Source of the DNA: an uncultured Bacilli bacterium
GTDB lineage: Bacteria; Bacillota_I; Bacilli_A; RF39; UBA660
Length of the DNA stretch: 64,000 nucleotides
Assembly (NCBI GenBank): GCA_944331895.1
Contig: CALVIX010000003.1
Coordinates: forward strand, 5,010 to 69,009
Direction: 5' to 3'
Below are positions 1 to 8,230 of the stretch, in pieces; the first letter of the stretch is position 1, and every line of letters starts with the position of its first letter. A program made the position numbers and the translations under genes. The notes beneath the pieces are model-generated. The model searched no databases and was not told the origin of the DNA. It saw nothing but the letters and a program-made list of their open reading frames with translations.

Positions 1-879
1 GGTGTCAAATGTAGTGTTCTATTCGGTGGAAGCAACCCAAAATCGCAAAAAGAAATTTTGAAAAAGCACGTACCAATCCTCGTCATCACTGCAGGAAAAG
101 CAAGTGAGCTCATAAAAGCTAAGAAATTAAAGCTAGAATATCTTTCCTATCTTGTACTGGATGAAGCAGATCTTTTGACGGAGAAAAATTGTTATCGCGA
201 CTCTGAAAATATCGTAGCAGCACTATCATCTAATACACAAGTGATCTTGTGTTCCGCAACAAAGACACCTAAATTAGAAACATTCGCCCAAAACTTACAA
301 CTTAAAATAATAGAAACAGAAGAAAAGAAAAATGAAAATATTGAACAATCTTTTTATCAAGTAGAAGAAAAGGAAAAATACGATCGTCTAAAACAATTGC
401 TAGAGAAAGAACAAGTTTTTCATGCACTTATCTTTGTTCAAACGAAAAACAAAGCTACCAAACTAGCGCAAAAATTAACAAATGATCATATTCCTGCGAT
501 CGCTTTTCACCATGATCTCGAAAAAGAAAAGCGAAAAAAAATAGCACAAATGATATCGCAAAACCAACCTCTACTACTTGTCACGACAGATATTGCTGCA
601 CGCGGACTAGATATTCCTAATTTACCATACGTTATTCAATATGATGCAGCTAATTCTACTGAAACATATTTTCATCGTATCGGTCGTACAGGGCGAAAAA
701 ATAAGGGAAATAGTATCATCTTTTTAACAAAACAAGATGACAAACTAAAACGAGACATTGAATACAAGTATCAGACTAAGATAAAAAAGAAAAAGAAAAT
801 TGATAATGAAAAGGTAATAAAAAAGAAAAAGAAGAGAAAACATACGAAGAATATTGGAAAACCACACAAGAAAAAATAG
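1..879 (+). CDS. DEAD-box RNA helicase (5' end lies outside the window)
   Basis: Frame is open from base 1 (GVKCSVLFGG...). Motifs LDEAD, SAT, TDIAARGLD, HRIGRTGR. Lys-rich tail. Confidence 0.9.
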   Translation, partial: GVKCSVLFGGSNPKSQKEILKKHVPILVITAGKASELIKAKKLKLEYLSYLVLDEADLLTEKNCYRDSENIVAALSSNTQVILCSATKTPKLETFAQNLQLKIIETEEKKNENIEQSFYQVEEKEKYDRLKQLLEKEQVFHALIFVQTKNKATKLAQKLTNDHIPAIAFHHDLEKEKRKKIAQMISQNQPLLLVTTDIAARGLDIPNLPYVIQYDAANSTETYFHRIGRTGRKNKGNSIIFLTKQDDKLKRDIEYKYQTKIKKKKKIDNEKVIKKKKKRKHTKNIGKPHKKK

Positions 880-902
880 AGACCTAGATCTCTATTTTTT
901 TA
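875..902. repeat. Left copy of 28-bp direct repeat AATAGAGACCTAGATCTCTATTTTTTTA; also a bidirectional terminator-like hairpin
   Basis: Identical to 3557-3584. Contains the helicase stop codon (TAG 877-879). Inverted arms around a 6-bp CCTAGA spacer. Confidence 0.9.
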
Positions 903-957
903 CTGGTAGGATTTTAATTATAATTCTTCTACTTTTTACAATACTAAAATACAATTT

Positions 958-3432
958 TTATCCAATCTTCCTTTTGTAAGTACATCCGTTTTGGTAATAA
1001 TTCGAACATCCAAAAAACTCGCCATATTTACTAATTTTTTTTCTCAATTGACCGCCACACACCGGACACTCAAATTGTTCTCTCTTCAGTTCGTGTTCAT
1101 AATTTTGTTTGAGCTCTAGTGCAAATTCCGATTCTTGCCCATTGATAGTGACAATAAACGTTTTCTTCTTTGCTCTCGTTAGTGCTACATAAAATAATCG
1201 TCGTTCCTCTGCATAAGGATATTGTTCACAATGTTCAAGCAACAAATCTAAAATAGGAGCATCTTGAATTTTACTTGGAAATCCCATCTTTGATTTACGA
1301 TTATTTATAATAAAAACATAGTCGGCTTGTAAGCCTTTCGCTTTATGCGCTGTCAAAAAAATTATATTCAGATCTGTCCGCATTTTTGATTTTACATCAA
1401 TAAACCCCGTTATATTGTTATACTTACATGCAAATAATCCACTGTCGCTTAGAATCTTGTTATCAAACGAATATCTTCCAATAAAATATACCGTACTTCC
1501 TTTAGGAAGATCATATAATTTTGCCGCCATAAATTTAATAACATTTTTATCAGTGTAGCCAGAAATTTCTCCAAGCGGAAATCCCTTAGTTTCAGATTTT
1601 CCTTGGATATTTTTTTTAATTTGCAGTGGATTCTGCATTATAAAATTACTACTTATTTCCGCCATCTTCTGCGAAAATCGATATGTAGTTTCTATTTTAC
1701 TAATTTCTGTTTCACCCCAATATTTTGAAAAATTAAGAATAAATCCAATATCACTACCTGTAAAGCGATATATACTTTGCCAGTCATCTCCCACACAAAA
1801 AAGCTCATAATCCTTTGATTTTCGTAAACTATCTAATAGAGAAAAATTAGCTTTTGATATATCTTGATATTCATCAACTATTACATATTTATACGGATTA
1901 GTGTATTTCCCTTGACGTACATATTCAGAAGCCAGATTAATCATATCATTAAAATCAATCTCATTGTTTGTTGTAAGATATTGACAATATGCATTAAAAA
2001 TCGGTTCTAATAACAAAAGGATAATTTTATTTGTGTATACATTATCTCTATTATAATTAAGTTTTTGAACTGTTGATATATCATATCCATTACTTTTAAT
2101 AAGGTTGATCAACGTTTCAAACAATTCAGCAAGACTTTCTAGTAAAAAATCCTCTTTATCATTAACTTGAGCCCACAGTTCTTTAGCGGGTCTTGGTTTC
2201 AAAATTACAGATGAATCTTTAAGTTTTTTTGTCAATGAATTAAGCAGATTTCCTTCACTTTTTTCATATGCATAACACTCGATCATTTTTGTTTTATATT
2301 TTCGATGGATAGTACGCTTCCACTTCATAGATGCTCGATATGCTTCTGTAGCAGTCTTTCCATTTGCTGAACTAAAATACGATGGGACTTCACCCTTTTC
2401 ATTAATACCAAAATATTCTATATATATTTTGTAATCTGGCAGATAAAAATCAGGATGATATTGTCCATACGCTTCTGTTCTCACATCAAATTCATAAGGT
2501 GCTTCATAAATATATCGAATACCATTTTGCATTAAAAAATTAGCAATGTCCATTTCTCCGTAACTTTTTACAATCTCGTGTTGAATTGTAGTAGGTGGGT
2601 TCATCTTAAGATATTCGTCATATTCTTTCTGCGATGCAAAATCAAATTCAGATTTAGCTACCACACGATTATATAACAAATAAGAATTCAATAAATCGAG
2701 GTATTCATCAGATTGCATATTAATCACAAGTTGTTTTTTAATAAATTCACGTAAAGAAATTTGCGTAATCTTTGGCATTGTCCCGTTAACTTCAGAAATA
2801 ATATTTAATCCAAGCTTATGAAATGTACAAATTGCAATATTACATTCGGTCTCAATAGCAATTCTTTCTTTCATCTCTGTTGTTGTGGCCCGTGTAAAAG
2901 ATATGACTAAAATATCTTGCGGAAGATATTTTAGCTTCTTTAATAAATATTTTATTTTTCCGATGATAATGGTTGTTTTTCCTGTCCCTGCACCAGCTAT
3001 GATTAAATGATTATGTGCTTCTTTTACGATACAAGTCATTTGTTGTTTGTCTAATTCTTTTCCACTAATATTACCAATAAGAGAATATGCCTCCTCAATT
3101 ACTTTCTCATTGTGTTGATAAATTTGGTGGGGCATCAATCGAGCTGAATTAAATAGTTCGGCCTGTTTTAAACATAGTGATTGATATTGAGCAGTTTTTT
3201 TCAATCGCTTTATTTTTTTCGCTTTGGATTCATCTAAAACAATGTTATGTCGTTTATTCCATATTTTTTCAACATTTGGATTAATGAGGCCTGATGTAGA
3301 AAATATTGAATCTCTATCAAACAAGGCAATATCAATATACGAAATCCATCGATTACAGATTTCCTCTTTTTCTTGGCACTTCTTTCGATATAATTTAATA
3401 AACTTTTGAACAATTCCCATATTTTCTCCCAT
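958..3432 (-). CDS. UvrD/helicase IV-like SF1 helicase with inserted nuclease-like domain and C-terminal topoisomerase-type C4 zinc ribbon
   Basis: AGAGTGKTT, VDEYQD, VGDDWQSIY, TAHKAKGLQ, EERRLFYVALTRAK. Insert KSYGE..IANFL...PDFYLPD..IYIEYFG. CPVCGG...GCSNY...C. Alternative start at 3420. Confidence 0.85.
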   Translation of the reverse strand: MGENMGIVQKFIKLYRKKCQEKEEICNRWISYIDIALFDRDSIFSTSGLINPNVEKIWNKRHNIVLDESKAKKIKRLKKTAQYQSLCLKQAELFNSARLMPHQIYQHNEKVIEEAYSLIGNISGKELDKQQMTCIVKEAHNHLIIAGAGTGKTTIIIGKIKYLLKKLKYLPQDILVISFTRATTTEMKERIAIETECNIAICTFHKLGLNIISEVNGTMPKITQISLREFIKKQLVINMQSDEYLDLLNSYLLYNRVVAKSEFDFASQKEYDEYLKMNPPTTIQHEIVKSYGEMDIANFLMQNGIRYIYEAPYEFDVRTEAYGQYHPDFYLPDYKIYIEYFGINEKGEVPSYFSSANGKTATEAYRASMKWKRTIHRKYKTKMIECYAYEKSEGNLLNSLTKKLKDSSVILKPRPAKELWAQVNDKEDFLLESLAELFETLINLIKSNGYDISTVQKLNYNRDNVYTNKIILLLLEPIFNAYCQYLTTNNEIDFNDMINLASEYVRQGKYTNPYKYVIVDEYQDISKANFSLLDSLRKSKDYELFCVGDDWQSIYRFTGSDIGFILNFSKYWGETEISKIETTYRFSQKMAEISSNFIMQNPLQIKKNIQGKSETKGFPLGEISGYTDKNVIKFMAAKLYDLPKGSTVYFIGRYSFDNKILSDSGLFACKYNNITGFIDVKSKMRTDLNIIFLTAHKAKGLQADYVFIINNRKSKMGFPSKIQDAPILDLLLEHCEQYPYAEERRLFYVALTRAKKKTFIVTINGQESEFALELKQNYEHELKREQFECPVCGGQLRKKISKYGEFFGCSNYYQNGCTYKRKIG

Positions 3433-3556
3433 TCTATTCTTACGTCATAACATAGGGTATCGACTCTAAAAGCAATGACACTTCAGAAATAATATTGAAC
3501 TTACATTTTGTTTTATTTTAGATCTCACTTTAAAATATCTCAATAACTATCTTATT

Positions 3557-3584
3557 AATAGAGACCTAGATCTCTATTTTTTTA
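3557..3584. repeat. Right copy of the 28-bp direct repeat
   Basis: Identical to 875-902. Overlaps the gltX stop codon (3574-3576) and last codons. Confidence 0.9.
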
Positions 3585-5226
3585 GTCCATATCTTTCCAT
3601 CATGCGATCGCGTCCAAATAACTTCATAATATCATATAAATTTGGTGTCATCGATTTCGTTGTGAGCGCTACACGTAATACCATACTAATATCTCCGATG
3701 TGTCCCTTATATTGATCTGGATTATTTTTGTATTCTTTCACTTCTCTTGCGTATCCAAATTCAGCAGCTAAATCTTTCATATGCCCAAACCAAGTTTGTT
3801 CATCCTCTTCCTCGCTATAGTACTTTTCCATGTAAGTAGATAAAATCGTTTCAATTTCTTTTGGATCTTTGATGTTTTGATATTCAAAATCTTCCTTATT
3901 TGGATGATATAATTCATCATACATATACCAAATTTGATTCTTGAGATCACTAAAACATGTGTAATCTTTTCTTGGTTTTTTCTTGTTTCTTTCGATATCA
4001 AAAATACCGATAGAATATTCTTTATACTTCTTTAAAAGATCTGCAAACTCACTATCGTATTCCTCTGCCCATGCAAGGCCTCTTTCATATACTTCCTCTG
4101 CTTTTAATCGGCTGATAAAGTTTTTAGATAAATTTAAGATCTTTTCTAGATCGAATAATGATCCACTTGGACTAATTTTCTTGAAATCCATTTTGAAATC
4201 ATCGATTTTACCAGTTGGATTCGCATCTAACCAACCTTCGAAATTAGAGTTAGCAACCGTTGCTAAATAAAGTAAAATCGCTTCGTTTGGAATTCCCTTT
4301 TCGTGATAATAACTTACTGCCATCTCTGGATCTTTTCTCTTGCTCAATTTACGACGCGCACCATTTTCTTCCTTCATCAAAGGCGAAATATGAGCATATT
4401 TTGGAGCTTTGAATCCAAATACTTGGAATAACTGTAAATGAATTGGTGCCGAACTTACCCATTCATCTCCACGAATGACGTGTGTCGTGCGCATTAAATG
4501 GTCATCGACAAGATGCGCGAAATGATATGTTGGAAGACCATCCGACTTGATGATAACGATATCCATGTCATTTTCTGGCATCTCAATTTTACCTTTAATC
4601 GCATCATTTAACACGATCTTTTTATTAAAATCACCAGGAGATTTCAAACGAATAATATATGGTGCCCCATTTTTTATTTTCTCTACTGCTTCTTCTTTGG
4701 TAAAGAAACGACTTTTTGCGAAATCCCCATAATATCCAATACGATCTTTGACAAGTTCTTGATGCTCGCGAATCTCTTTTAGTTCCTCTTCTGTTTCAAA
4801 TGCTGGATATGCGAGGTCTTGTTCAATTAAATATTTTGCGAATGCTTGGTAGATATCTTTTCTCTTACTTTGAATATATGGACCGTATATTCCCTTTTCT
4901 TCTGTTTCATTTACGACACCTTCATCAAACGTAATTCCGAAGTTATTTAAATCACGTACGATACTTTCAATTCCATTTTCGACTTCACGTTTTTTATCAG
5001 TATCCTCAATTCTTAAGAAGAATACACCATCTGTTTGGCGTGCCATCTTTCTTTCGATAAATGCTGCATATAATGCCCCCATATGAACAAATCCCGTTGG
5101 ACTTGGTGCGTAACGTGTTACGATTGCTCCTTCTTTTAAATCGCGGTATGGATATTTCTTCTCATAGTAATCCATGTCATGTTCTACATTTGGTAATAAA
5201 AAATCTGCGTATTCTTTATTTGTCAT
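3574..5226 (-). CDS. gltX: Glutamate--tRNA ligase
   Basis: RYAPSPTG, HMGA (HIGH), LRIEDTD, KLSKR (KMSKS). Start moved to ATG 5226 behind a GAAAGGA RBS. Confidence 0.95.
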   Translation of the reverse strand: MTNKEYADFLLPNVEHDMDYYEKKYPYRDLKEGAIVTRYAPSPTGFVHMGALYAAFIERKMARQTDGVFFLRIEDTDKKREVENGIESIVRDLNNFGITFDEGVVNETEEKGIYGPYIQSKRKDIYQAFAKYLIEQDLAYPAFETEEELKEIREHQELVKDRIGYYGDFAKSRFFTKEEAVEKIKNGAPYIIRLKSPGDFNKKIVLNDAIKGKIEMPENDMDIVIIKSDGLPTYHFAHLVDDHLMRTTHVIRGDEWVSSAPIHLQLFQVFGFKAPKYAHISPLMKEENGARRKLSKRKDPEMAVSYYHEKGIPNEAILLYLATVANSNFEGWLDANPTGKIDDFKMDFKKISPSGSLFDLEKILNLSKNFISRLKAEEVYERGLAWAEEYDSEFADLLKKYKEYSIGIFDIERNKKKPRKDYTCFSDLKNQIWYMYDELYHPNKEDFEYQNIKDPKEIETILSTYMEKYYSEEEDEQTWFGHMKDLAAEFGYAREVKEYKNNPDQYKGHIGDISMVLRVALTTKSMTPNLYDIMKLFGRDRMMERYGLKK

Positions 5227-5244
5227 ACTCTCATTCCTTTCTAC

Positions 5245-5445
5245 ATAAAAAAGATTCATCTGTTAAGGACGAATCTTCGTGGTACCACCTTAGTTCTCTA
5301 TTTATAAAATAGACTCAAATCCCTTAACGCGGGAAACGGAATCATCAACTCCAAAGTTTCTTCTCTATGTTCCTCGTACTTATTTTCACCAACCATAAGC
5401 TCTCTATAACGATTTCGATAGATACTCCTCTTCTTCTTCGTCTTT
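5245..5445 (-). promoter_or_regulatory. T-box riboswitch (Glu)
   Basis: Minus strand has AGAGA and GGTGA stem-I motifs, a probable GAA specifier, T-box AAGGTGGTACCACG and a terminator with U-run upstream of gltX. Confidence 0.9.
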
Positions 5446-6853: not shown

Positions 6854-6916
6854 TATGAAATCAAAACACTTTATAGTGTTTTTTTTCTTTTTGTGCTATC
6901 ATATAAATGAGGTGGT

Positions 6917-8230
6917 ATGATGAGAAAAGAAATTACGATGAAAGAATTAGAACGCTTTCAAAAAAAATATCATGATGATCCTAAAAATAAGTTAATTGAA
7001 AATGCTATCACGAGATCAGGTATCGATGATGTGTGTTTCAATCGAGAAACTTTAATTGAAAATCAAAATGTATTCAATGTAGAAACAGAATTAGGAAGTG
7101 TTCAAAACCAAAAAAATAGTGGTCGTTGTTGGTGCTTTGCCGGAACGAACATGATTCGTGGAAACATCGCAAAGAACATGAATGTCGAGGTAAAAGATCT
7201 CTCTTTATCCAATGTTTATCTTACCTTTTATGATCGATTAGAAAAATTTAATAACGCCTATGAAAATTTATTTACAGTAGAAAATTTAGACTATGACTAT
7301 CTACTACAAGAGTATTATCTCATGTGTGGTGAAGGTGGGTGGTACGAATCCTTTTCTAACTTAGTTACAAAGTATGGAATTCTACCGTCCTCATATATGC
7401 CAGAGTCACACGATAGTGTCGCTTCCAATCGACTTAATACTCTTCTGCAAGAAAAATTAAAATACGATGCGAATATAATTATCGAACTCCGCAATCAAAA
7501 TACACCGATCGAAAAATTACGAAAAGAAAAAGAAAGAATGTTATCAGAAGTATATGAAATTCTATGTAAAGTATTAGGAGAACCAACGAAAGAATTTACA
7601 TTAGAATATCAAGACAAAAAGAAAAAGAAAATCAGAATCGAACACATGACTCCAATGAAATTTAAAGAACAATATTTAACAATCGATCTAAACGATTTTG
7701 TGGTATTAAAAAGTATCGATCACTATAAGAAAAAATACTATCAAAAATATCAGGATGAACGAGCTTACGGCGCAACGACGAGGAAATTTGAATACATCAA
7801 TGTTCCCCTGAAAGAATTAGAAAAAGCTGCAATCAAACAATTAAAAGATAATATGCCTGTATGGTTTGCTTGTCCTACAAACAAAATGTGGAATCGTAAA
7901 GAATGGATTTTAGATATGAGGAACTATAACTATCTTGACACCCTTGGAATGAAACTGATGGATCGCAAAACATCGTATAACTTTCACGATATTCCATCTA
8001 GTCATGCGATGTCATTCGTTGGAGTTCATCTCATCGATCATAAGCCCGTACGTTGGAAAGTAGAAAATTCGTGGGGAAATGAAAAGGATGCGAAACAATT
8101 TCTTATTATGAATCAAAACTATTTTGAAGAGCGTGTCACTGCTGTTGCAGTTCACAAGAAATATTTATCCGCAAAAATTAAAAAATGTTTGGACCAAGCA
8201 CCAATTATCATCAATATTCACGAACTATAA
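6917..8230 (+). CDS. pepC: Cysteine aminopeptidase C (bleomycin hydrolase, C1B family)
   Basis: QKNSGRCWCFA (catalytic Cys), SHAM (His), VENSWG (Asn). Confidence 0.9.
   Translation: MMRKEITMKELERFQKKYHDDPKNKLIENAITRSGIDDVCFNRETLIENQNVFNVETELGSVQNQKNSGRCWCFAGTNMIRGNIAKNMNVEVKDLSLSNVYLTFYDRLEKFNNAYENLFTVENLDYDYLLQEYYLMCGEGGWYESFSNLVTKYGILPSSYMPESHDSVASNRLNTLLQEKLKYDANIIIELRNQNTPIEKLRKEKERMLSEVYEILCKVLGEPTKEFTLEYQDKKKKKIRIEHMTPMKFKEQYLTIDLNDFVVLKSIDHYKKKYYQKYQDERAYGATTRKFEYINVPLKELEKAAIKQLKDNMPVWFACPTNKMWNRKEWILDMRNYNYLDTLGMKLMDRKTSYNFHDIPSSHAMSFVGVHLIDHKPVRWKVENSWGNEKDAKQFLIMNQNYFEERVTAVAVHKKYLSAKIKKCLDQAPIIINIHEL

Follow-up and report, generated by a model that had tools for sequence, protein, structure and literature searches.

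A predicted helicase-nuclease gene between two copies of a terminator hairpin in an uncultured gut Bacilli bacterium

How does a single gene come to lie between two perfect copies of a terminator hairpin, with no recombinase or transposase beside it? The question is raised by a 64,000-nucleotide stretch from an uncultured Bacilli bacterium (GenBank assembly GCA_944331895.1, contig CALVIX010000003.1, positions 5,010 to 69,009 of the forward strand; hereafter the window). Near its start, one gene predicted to encode a helicase-nuclease separates a DEAD-box helicase gene from a convergent glutamyl/glutaminyl-tRNA synthetase gene (gltX-like) and is bounded by a 28-bp direct repeat. An initial annotation of the window had proposed that this islet was either a cassette bounded by attL/attR-type tyrosine-recombinase core sites and mobilised in trans, or the remnant of a larger island. 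Comparison with related genomes led us to another answer. The repeat is very probably a duplication of the target made at insertion, and the islet is a real, recent acquisition of a single gene that lies between two described phenomena. A hairpin-duplicating insertion of this kind is a rare but already described footprint, not a recombinase attachment site.

The 28-mer AATAGAGACCTAGATCTCTATTTTTTTA occurred exactly at 875-902 and at 3557-3584 of the window (0 of 100 shuffles contained two matches), and no third copy was found in the window with up to 3 mismatches allowed. Further copies elsewhere in the genome, for which the initial annotation had suggested looking, were absent: the 22-nt core of the 28-mer, with up to 2 mismatches, matched only the two places flanking the islet in the whole of the window's own assembly (G000; 1,124,790 bases in 13 contigs, 83% complete, GC 0.338). 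As first described, two inverted arms of 8 bp each (AATAGAGA and TCTCTATT) enclose the 6-nt spacer CCTAGA, and the stop codons of both neighbouring genes fall within the repeat (TAG at 877-879 and, read on the other strand, CTA at 3574-3576). The duplicated 28 bp therefore span a stop codon, a hairpin and a T-run. Folded as RNA, the left copy reached -12.4 kcal/mol on the plus strand and -12.1 kcal/mol on the minus strand, with 0 of 200 shuffles as good in either direction, and judging from this fold it can act as terminator both for the DEAD-box helicase gene (plus strand) and for the inserted gene (minus strand). On the minus strand the right copy kept its 9-pair stem (-9.3 kcal/mol) after the synthetase gene, while the U-run was gone. 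The two-way fold and the single 824-aa open reading frame (ORF) bore out the picture of a one-gene islet set into a bidirectional terminator. The features of the locus are as follows.

1 to 879, plus strand: 3' part of a DEAD-box helicase gene, its frame open at the window start and its stop codon TAG (877-879) inside the left copy (Pfam DEAD 2.3e-15, Helicase_C 2.1e-25).
875 to 902, no strand assigned: left copy of the 28-bp duplication, a hairpin preceded by an A-run and followed by a T-run, identified by exact repeat and fold.
903 to 3556, no strand assigned: inserted DNA of 2,654 bp, GC 0.303 (genome 0.338), absent from the related genomes G001 and G002, whose flank alignments break at 902/3557.
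958 to 3432, minus strand: cargo gene of 824 aa, the sole long ORF between the copies, encoding a UvrD/helicase-IV-like helicase of superfamily 1 (SF1).
997 to 1071, minus strand: C4 zinc ribbon of the topoisomerase I type, residues 788-812 (Pfam Zn_ribbon_Top1 3.3e-07, 30.4 bits, just below the cut-off of 32).
2203 to 2598, minus strand: predicted nuclease-fold core of the insert domain, residues ~279-410, as indicated by an AF2 model, VIA-align, PADLOC and invariant columns.
3433 to 3556, minus strand: region upstream of the cargo gene, inside the insert, with the promoter-like pair TTGAGA-17-TAAAAT at 3543..3515.
3557 to 3584, no strand assigned: right copy of the 28-bp duplication, identified by exact repeat and fold.
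3574 to 5259, minus strand: class I Glu/Gln-tRNA synthetase gene (gltX-like), 561 aa, its stop codon (CTA, 3574-3576) inside the right copy (Pfam tRNA-synt_1c 2.8e-71).

No transposase, integrase or other mobility gene was found within the insert or beside it, the only long ORF being the helicase gene and the neighbours the DEAD-box helicase and synthetase genes; the islet is thus without a recombinase, as the initial annotation had reported. Neither terminal inverted repeats nor ends of an insertion sequence (IS) were found at the ends of 903-3556. The suggestion that the islet is what remains of a larger island did not hold up. The insert has one intact gene with its own promoter-like site (10 of 12 consensus positions, a pattern match only), and its upstream non-coding end found only weak, AT-rich chance matches in the 61 genomes of the host's family that were searched, G000 included. 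Because the insert has a GC content of 0.303 against 0.338 for the genome, and the nearest cargo relatives in named genomes (at most 72% alike) are in Clostridia and other phyla, the insert appears to be of foreign origin.

Collapsing the two copies into one had been predicted to restore the natural state of the locus, and this state was found when related genomes were aligned. Among the 40 relatives searched, two, G001 and G002, belong to the same genus as G000, each being a different species. BLAST of window 1-5400 against them showed that 5-902 and 3557-5400 match adjoining stretches that overlap by exactly 28 bp: in both genomes the locus reads DEAD-box helicase, one hairpin, gltX, that is, the empty site. 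The synthetase protein is 98% identical to those of G001 and G002. No orthologue of the cargo was found in either genome; the best matches (E 2.3e-53 and 5.9e-52, covering residues 466-784) were a paralogue that G000 also possesses, on contig C4. Hairpin stem and T-run are alike in the three genomes, and the loop differs, reading CCTAGA in both G000 copies, CGCACA in G001 and CTTACA in G002. Since both copies hold the fast-changing loop of the host lineage itself, the repeat, as far as these alignments can tell, is a duplicated host target rather than a core borne by the element, and presumably younger than the species split.

A duplicated 28-mer might have been produced by faulty assembly, a possibility that the initial annotation had raised. 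This was ruled out, because a contig from a separate study spans the islet. Among the Logan contigs of four sequencing runs, run X2 yielded a single contig of 10,900 bp covering window 1-5400, with 131 differences and one additional T in the T-run of the left copy; in this strain, 2.4% diverged, the two copies differ by one T only. An 815-bp contig of run X10 crosses the left junction (window 478-1292), and contigs of runs X18 and X8 stop at 901/902.

The geometry that had suggested a tyrosine-recombinase core is real. Xer-dependent elements and dif modules contain no recombinase and are bounded by 28-bp sites with inverted arms and a 6-bp spacer. In all of these traits they resemble the islet, and both XerC and XerD are present in G000. 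An excisable cassette bounded by such a core, whether a dif-like site acted on by Xer or the site of an integrase working in trans, is nonetheless extremely improbable. The repeat is host sequence with a spacer that varies between species, and its arms are of 8 bp. A chromosomal dif at the hairpin was rejected, GC skew staying negative and the minus-strand bias unchanged across the site, which is thus not a replication terminus. An active Xer site should resolve perfect direct copies, yet the islet was kept in the diverged X2 strain, and no joint was seen in the contigs of the four runs, which would drop rare forms. The repeats of the two other islets described below differ in sequence (25 and 28 bp), and those of cargo relatives are unrelated. 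A search for stand-alone tyrosine recombinases, also suggested at the outset, did recover two from G000, but they scored as XerD (371.7 bits) and XerC (337.4 bits) and no dedicated integrase was found, in a genome whose 83% completeness means that another could be missed. One large serine recombinase and one Cas1 are also encoded elsewhere in G000. Duplication by Cas1 was considered and rejected: its gene and a CRISPR array with 36-bp repeats are on contig C4, the repeats are of the wrong length, and neither shows any connection with the islet. The array itself (C4:8962-11250), near the Cas1 gene, contains blocks of 168 and 300 bp of spacers and repeats that each occur twice.

The islet is not alone in its genome: insertion polymorphism with exact duplication of host sequence recurs at two other terminator hairpins of G000. 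We scanned all 735 ORFs of at least 200 aa for exact flanking repeats of at least 16 bp and obtained three flanked ORFs, namely the helicase gene, an artefact of the CRISPR array (40 bp, contig C4) and a gene for a 294-aa prepilin-type protein on contig C2. The pilin-like islet (C2:23002-24109; locus L151 3003-4110) is bounded by the 28-bp repeat TATAGAGATTGAGATAATCTCTTTTTTT, which again consists of stop codon, hairpin and T-run. Its gene has a promoter-like pair TTGACA...TATAAT with a run of 11 G in the spacer, and slippage in this run could, on sequence grounds, switch the gene on and off. A second scan, for any exact repeat of at least 18 bp, revealed 3,558 bp of contig C5 bounded by a perfect palindrome of 25 bp, AAAGTACTTGAATATCAAGTACTTT (C5:5853-9460; locus L158 2354-5961). 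In G001 as in G002, each of the two sites holds one hairpin and no insert. Comparison of G000 with the whole of G002 (123 segments, 1,007,187 bp aligned) gave 12 clean insertions in G000, three of which had flank overlaps of 25-31 bp; these were the helicase, pilin and C5 islets. At the remaining nine, the flanks overlapped by 9 bp at most or left up to 52 bp of G002 sequence unaligned. Among 44 insertions in G002, scanned with a seed floor of 9 bp, there was one perfect 22-bp repeat, around a single NUDIX gene; other insertions there showed two exact repeats (17 and 14 bp), two of 9 bp, and three had no repeat. A possible fourth insertion in G000, at a TAGAGA hairpin of G002 (C3:27780-31215), proved to be a substitution without a repeat. 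No donor locus for the three islets was found inside G000 or G002 beyond N-terminal similarity of the pilin and a 55-bp repeat.

Besides a fragment of an OLD/PtuA-like ATPase gene, the C5 islet encodes an XRE regulator and a membrane protein of 276 aa; it also has an IS30-family transposase gene, whose product scored 194.1 bits (cut-off 80). The IS is 1,022 bp long with inverted ends of 26 bp; its right end abuts the right hairpin copy, and the 10-nt sequence CTTAAATTAA is present both at the left end of the islet and at the left end of the IS. The same IS, 99% identical, stands alone in G001, flanked by the 22-bp duplicated hairpin AAGAGATGTGCAAGCATCTCTT; at the corresponding site of G000 a single hairpin stands without the IS. 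The genus thus harbours an IS30-family element that duplicates whole hairpins. Relatives of its transposase were detected in 9 of 121 genomes of the host's family, G000 included, and two of five further IS30-type loci, in other genera (G080 and G102), showed whole-hairpin duplications of 29 and 32 bp. A Pfam rve search of G000 gave no match; it missed the known IS30 gene too and is therefore uninformative. Within the C5 islet a second hairpin lies directly before the IS, and beside the IS is a 55-56-bp sequence (L158 4838-4893) that recurs with 100% identity at four contig ends of G002 (both ends of C2, the end of C7 and the start of C9) and with 88% identity at the start of C4, which suggests a multi-copy repeat that was not assembled in G002.

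Elements of this habit are known. IS1630 of Mycoplasma fermentans targets and duplicates inverted repeats, according to the title of Calcutt et al. 1999; its target duplications are given as 19-26 bp in the legend of Fig. 1 of PMC2853133, and those of IS1630-type elements as 16-26 bp in a statement of PMC3317919. Like IS1630 and ISMhom-1, both of the IS30 family, the insertions described here duplicate whole inverted repeats or terminators of variable sequence and leave the 3' ends of flanking genes intact. The local IS30 group makes duplications of 22-32 bp, against the 16-26 bp published for the kin of IS1630, and that of the helicase islet is 28 bp. Unlike IS1630, the helicase islet has no IS30-family transposase (none was found in 903-3556), no terminal inverted repeats of 26-27 bp and no IS remnant, only cargo. 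Partial likenesses exist to subgroups of the IS1202 family, with long target duplications of 16-28 bp (a passage of PMC10132070, which also mentions pdif and dif-site elements), and to IS1272, which targets inverted repeats and, as stated in PMC5678879, leaves no duplication. A literature search for IS30 elements that duplicate inverted-repeat terminators at their target sites turned up nothing relevant. Mobile insertion cassettes (MICs) carry passenger genes without a transposase, produce a target duplication and are bounded by IS inverted repeats; the islet shares the first two traits with them and lacks the IS inverted repeats.

Taken as a whole, the explanation that we find best, and to which we give just short of an even chance, is that foreign DNA was inserted at the terminator hairpin with duplication of that hairpin, after an opening of the IS1630 type. 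DNA of 2,654 bp with one helicase-nuclease gene and a promoter-like site would have entered the bidirectional terminator between the DEAD-box helicase gene and gltX in the lineage of the G000 species. The two strands of the target would have been cut 28 bp apart, so that the cuts bracketed hairpin and T-run, and filling in of the gaps would have left the whole terminator on both sides of the insert. The outcome would be a full terminator for the DEAD-box helicase and cargo genes, and for the synthetase gene a hairpin that has lost its U-run. Attribution of the staggered cut to an IS30-type (IS1630-type) transposase is the tentative step, held at somewhat less than even; the IS itself would no longer be present.

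Several observations weigh against this explanation. Neither the helicase islet nor the pilin islet has a transposase or terminal inverted repeats, their ends scored within the shuffle range when compared with the IS ends, and the core of the IS inverted repeat is absent from both. Because a DDE transposase needs IS ends, which are absent here, direct or in-trans transposition of the helicase islet by an IS of the C5 type is not supported; if the islet was moved in trans, the candidate is a hairpin-duplicating transposase and not a tyrosine recombinase. Three of the five further IS30-type loci have no flanking duplication (they are partial, degenerate or near a contig end), and the IS duplications are centred on the palindrome, whereas the 28-bp ones are shifted by 1.5-3 bp towards the T-run. 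One point in favour of the IS link is the AGAGA stem that the helicase and pilin islets have in common with the IS site of G001, a stem found in only 12 of the 379 terminator-like hairpins of G000; it is missing from the IS targets of G080 and G102, and the likeness may reflect chance or another determinant. Some single genes lie between long duplications without a hairpin, as at locus L086 (36-47 bp, see below) and around the NUDIX gene of G002 (22 bp). The latter, encoding a NUDIX hydrolase, lies in an insert of 1.17 kb (C11:47467-48679; locus L302) whose repeat forms no clear hairpin; in G000 this site has no insert. Junctions of an empty site or of a circle across 903-3584 were not seen in the contigs of the four runs, from which rare forms drop out, so that this negative speaks neither way. 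Finally, G000 is an outgroup to G001 and G002 together, judging from the identity of their gltX genes (90-92% between G000 and either, 94% between G001 and G002), and parsimony alone cannot separate a gain in G000 from one ancestral loss.

Such a loss would make the two-terminator state the older one. The ancestor of G001 and G002 would have lost the helicase gene by recombination between the 28-bp copies, a direct-repeat deletion that would leave exactly one copy, and with G000 outside the other two, one loss is as parsimonious as one gain. We regard this history as improbable. An earlier insertion with duplication would still be required; the loop is fast-changing, each of the three species having its own, and still the two G000 copies are identical; and two more islets would need the same history. 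Other genera lend it no support and provide no outgroup, because the DEAD/gltX neighbourhood is absent from them: no DEAD-helicase match was found within 1.5 kb on either side of gltX at any of 23 other long-form gltX loci (L006-L026, L028 and L029). In one genome of the same class (L030), a DEAD match of 33% adjoins a distant gltX relative of 32%.

An insertion with long target duplication that involved no transposase at all is a plausible alternative to an IS1630-type opening, though well below even in our estimate. Foreign DNA, taken up for example by transformation, would have been captured at a staggered break or joined through a template switch at the hairpin, and repair synthesis would have duplicated the stretch. 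Restriction-modification genes inserted with long target duplication were reportedly described by Nobusato et al. in 2000. Furuta, Abe and Kobayashi (2010; PMC2853133) treat such insertions with a working threshold of more than 30 bp, and in the passage that defines it they exclude the repeats of site-specific recombination. Like the members of that class, the islet is a small gene unit without a mobility gene, its flanking direct repeats align to a single copy in an empty genome, the repeat may include the last bases of a neighbouring gene, and the cargo is of a kind of gene that travels between genomes and bears a predicted nuclease. It departs from the class in its 28 bp, many of their duplications being hundreds of bp long, in a cargo that is a helicase with a Vsr-like nuclease fold rather than a restriction-modification system, and in a duplicated piece that is exactly a terminator hairpin and recurs in the genome. 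The absence of IS ends and terminal inverted repeats from the helicase islet favours the transposase-free route, as do the 22-bp non-hairpin duplication around the NUDIX gene, the duplications of 26-94 bp, not every one a hairpin, around cargo relatives (5 of 110, as compared with 2 of 184 neighbouring ORFs), the single genes without a transposase domain flanked likewise at L116, L078 and L127, and the prepilin-type proteins encoded by G000, with a weakly ComGC-like N-terminus. It leaves unexplained why all three G000 islets lie exactly on terminator-like hairpins, each copied whole, and why two of them share a 28-bp length and an ATAGAGA start, and an enzyme with just such a habit lives in the genus. 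The two counts of flanked ORFs (5 of 110, 2 of 184) differ little, and in what PMC2853133 says of the class its mechanism has no experimental demonstration.

A broader proposal, which we consider unlikely at present, is that gut Bacilli with small genomes possess a terminator-directed route for installing single foreign genes. An IS1630-like transposase, or other machinery that recognises hairpins, would open the terminator with a stagger of 22-32 bp, DNA without IS ends would be joined in, and the whole terminator would be rebuilt on both sides. Such a route would yield the three IS-free or IS-poor islets of one 1.1-Mb genome and the terminator-flanked single genes in other Firmicutes; new genes would arrive insulated, with no host gene harmed. 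The clean empty sites show a streamlined 1.1-Mb gut bacterium gaining single genes without integrases, one for a helicase-nuclease that is a candidate for defence or repair and one for a pilin-like protein of the surface. Each landed in a terminator hairpin, and the copied hairpin leaves the neighbours one after their stop codons. The locus joins two phenomena that have been treated apart, the insertion of defence genes with long target duplication and the hairpin duplication of IS1630-type elements; if the link is true, it offers a testable enzyme for the former. For annotators it carries a warning: the direct repeats that bracket a gene may be perfect and palindromic without being att sites.

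The cargo protein most likely serves in repair or defence as a helicase-nuclease and most likely did not bring about its own insertion. It matched Pfam UvrD-helicase (4.4e-44) and UvrD_C (6.9e-14), and its best NCBIfam model was DNA helicase IV (NF008276; 7e-101, 338.8 bits, below the cut-off of 543). By sequence its solved relatives are UvrD, PcrA and Rep, and both PADLOC, run on the whole protein, and the ESM Atlas returned only generic UvrD-type matches or clusters. The cysteines of the C-terminal zinc ribbon are invariant in 14 relatives. Residues 239-486 form an insert without a Pfam family (best match Phage_endo_I, E 0.068), which an AF2 model from a 29-sequence alignment predicted with a pLDDT of 91.2. 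VIA-align placed the model closest to the catalytic domain of I-Bth0305I (Z 10.2, rmsd 2.5, 97 aligned), followed by Vsr (Z 8.4), NGO0050 (Z 7.4) and TnsA (Z 7.2). Foldseek with the same model gave no match at E <=0.001, and its weak list was full of PD-(D/E)XK nucleases; PADLOC on the insert domain matched PDC-S69 (6e-9) and HEAT_CxxC_PD-DEXK (2.2e-7). Among 29 relatives Glu339 is invariant and Asp328 nearly so, being kept in at least 90% of them. These models support a PD-(D/E)XK (Vsr-like) core fold with conserved acidic residues for the insert domain, and the description of the cargo as a helicase-nuclease, made in the initial annotation, is supported at the level of predicted fold. The protein thus shares its SF1 UvrD-like motor with helicase IV (HelD), UvrD, PcrA and Rep and differs from all of them in the insert of ~250 residues with the predicted PD-(D/E)XK fold and in the zinc ribbon. 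No methyltransferase was found in the cargo, which is not a restriction-modification system. Self-insertion by its nuclease was rejected as a requirement, the pilin islet having the same footprint without a nuclease.

The family to which the cargo belongs is large, with 2,506 proteins at E <=0.001 among 8,000 candidates scored, and patchily spread: the 259 genome loci found include some from Clostridia, Bacilli, Saccharibacteria, a metagenome-assembled genome (MAG) of Muribaculum and a MAG of Eggerthellaceae, at 50-73% identity. One protein recovered, P0002, is 89% identical to the cargo. We checked 80 genome loci for flanking repeats (both flanks present in 69) and 80 metagenome loci (both flanks present in 63). 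A tight, long flanking repeat was present at only one genome locus of the family, L086, where it measures 36 bp if exact or 47 bp at 96%. Downstream, the repeat coincides with the beginning of an addB-like ORF of 1,097 aa (its start and first 12 codons), and upstream stands a truncated duplicate of this piece. From its sequence this repeat, too, is a duplicated target, of different sequence and without a hairpin; no empty site was found among 25 relatives, whose DNA identity was at most 66-77%. Several metagenome loci of the family were flanked by repeats of 26-165 bp. Under uniform criteria, with all ORFs of at least 300 aa, such repeats flanked 5 of the 110 helicase ORFs and 2 of the 184 neighbours, as cited above, counts too few to claim an enrichment in the family; two of the loci, L219 and L220, may be one sequence filed twice. 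The non-coding insert ends of the window, L086 and eight other loci, compared by eye, showed no similarity.

Other members of the family have varied surroundings. In three Clostridia loci (L053, L055 and L057) the helicase homologue is preceded, at ~3780-4000, by a short ORF of the XRE helix-turn-helix type that runs up to or into its start, and L056 retains a mere remnant of such an ORF upstream. A metagenome contig of 4,619 bp (L246) with a distant helicase relative carries a 165-bp direct repeat (91%) at its ends, 6-170 and 4455-4619. At L091 a 21-bp tRNA 3'-end sequence lies on both sides of the homologue (3340-3360 and 6903-6923), and at L034 a tRNA gene (~3007-3080) follows the homologue of genome G003; some members may sit in tRNA-linked islands. 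In a MAG of rumen Clostridia (L116 6530-8566), an ORF of 588 aa without a Pfam family adjoins the helicase homologue and has the perfect 26-bp palindromic terminator AAAAAGCGCCCCTCGGGGCGCTTTTT on both sides.

The flanks of the islet differ in their divergence from the related genomes. On the left, about 3 kb (G000 C3:2816-5911, from ~-2200 before the window start through window 1-902) are 82-85% identical to G001 and G002, which are ~93% alike there; on the right, G000 is 90-92% identical to them. Examined as a possible co-transferred tract, the divergent left flank had no sharp breakpoint. Within the synthetase gene, ~200-300 bp at window 3911-4111 are 99-100% identical to G001 between flanks of 90-92%, which looks like a recent recombination tract between species; the X2 strain shows a cluster of differences at the same stretch.

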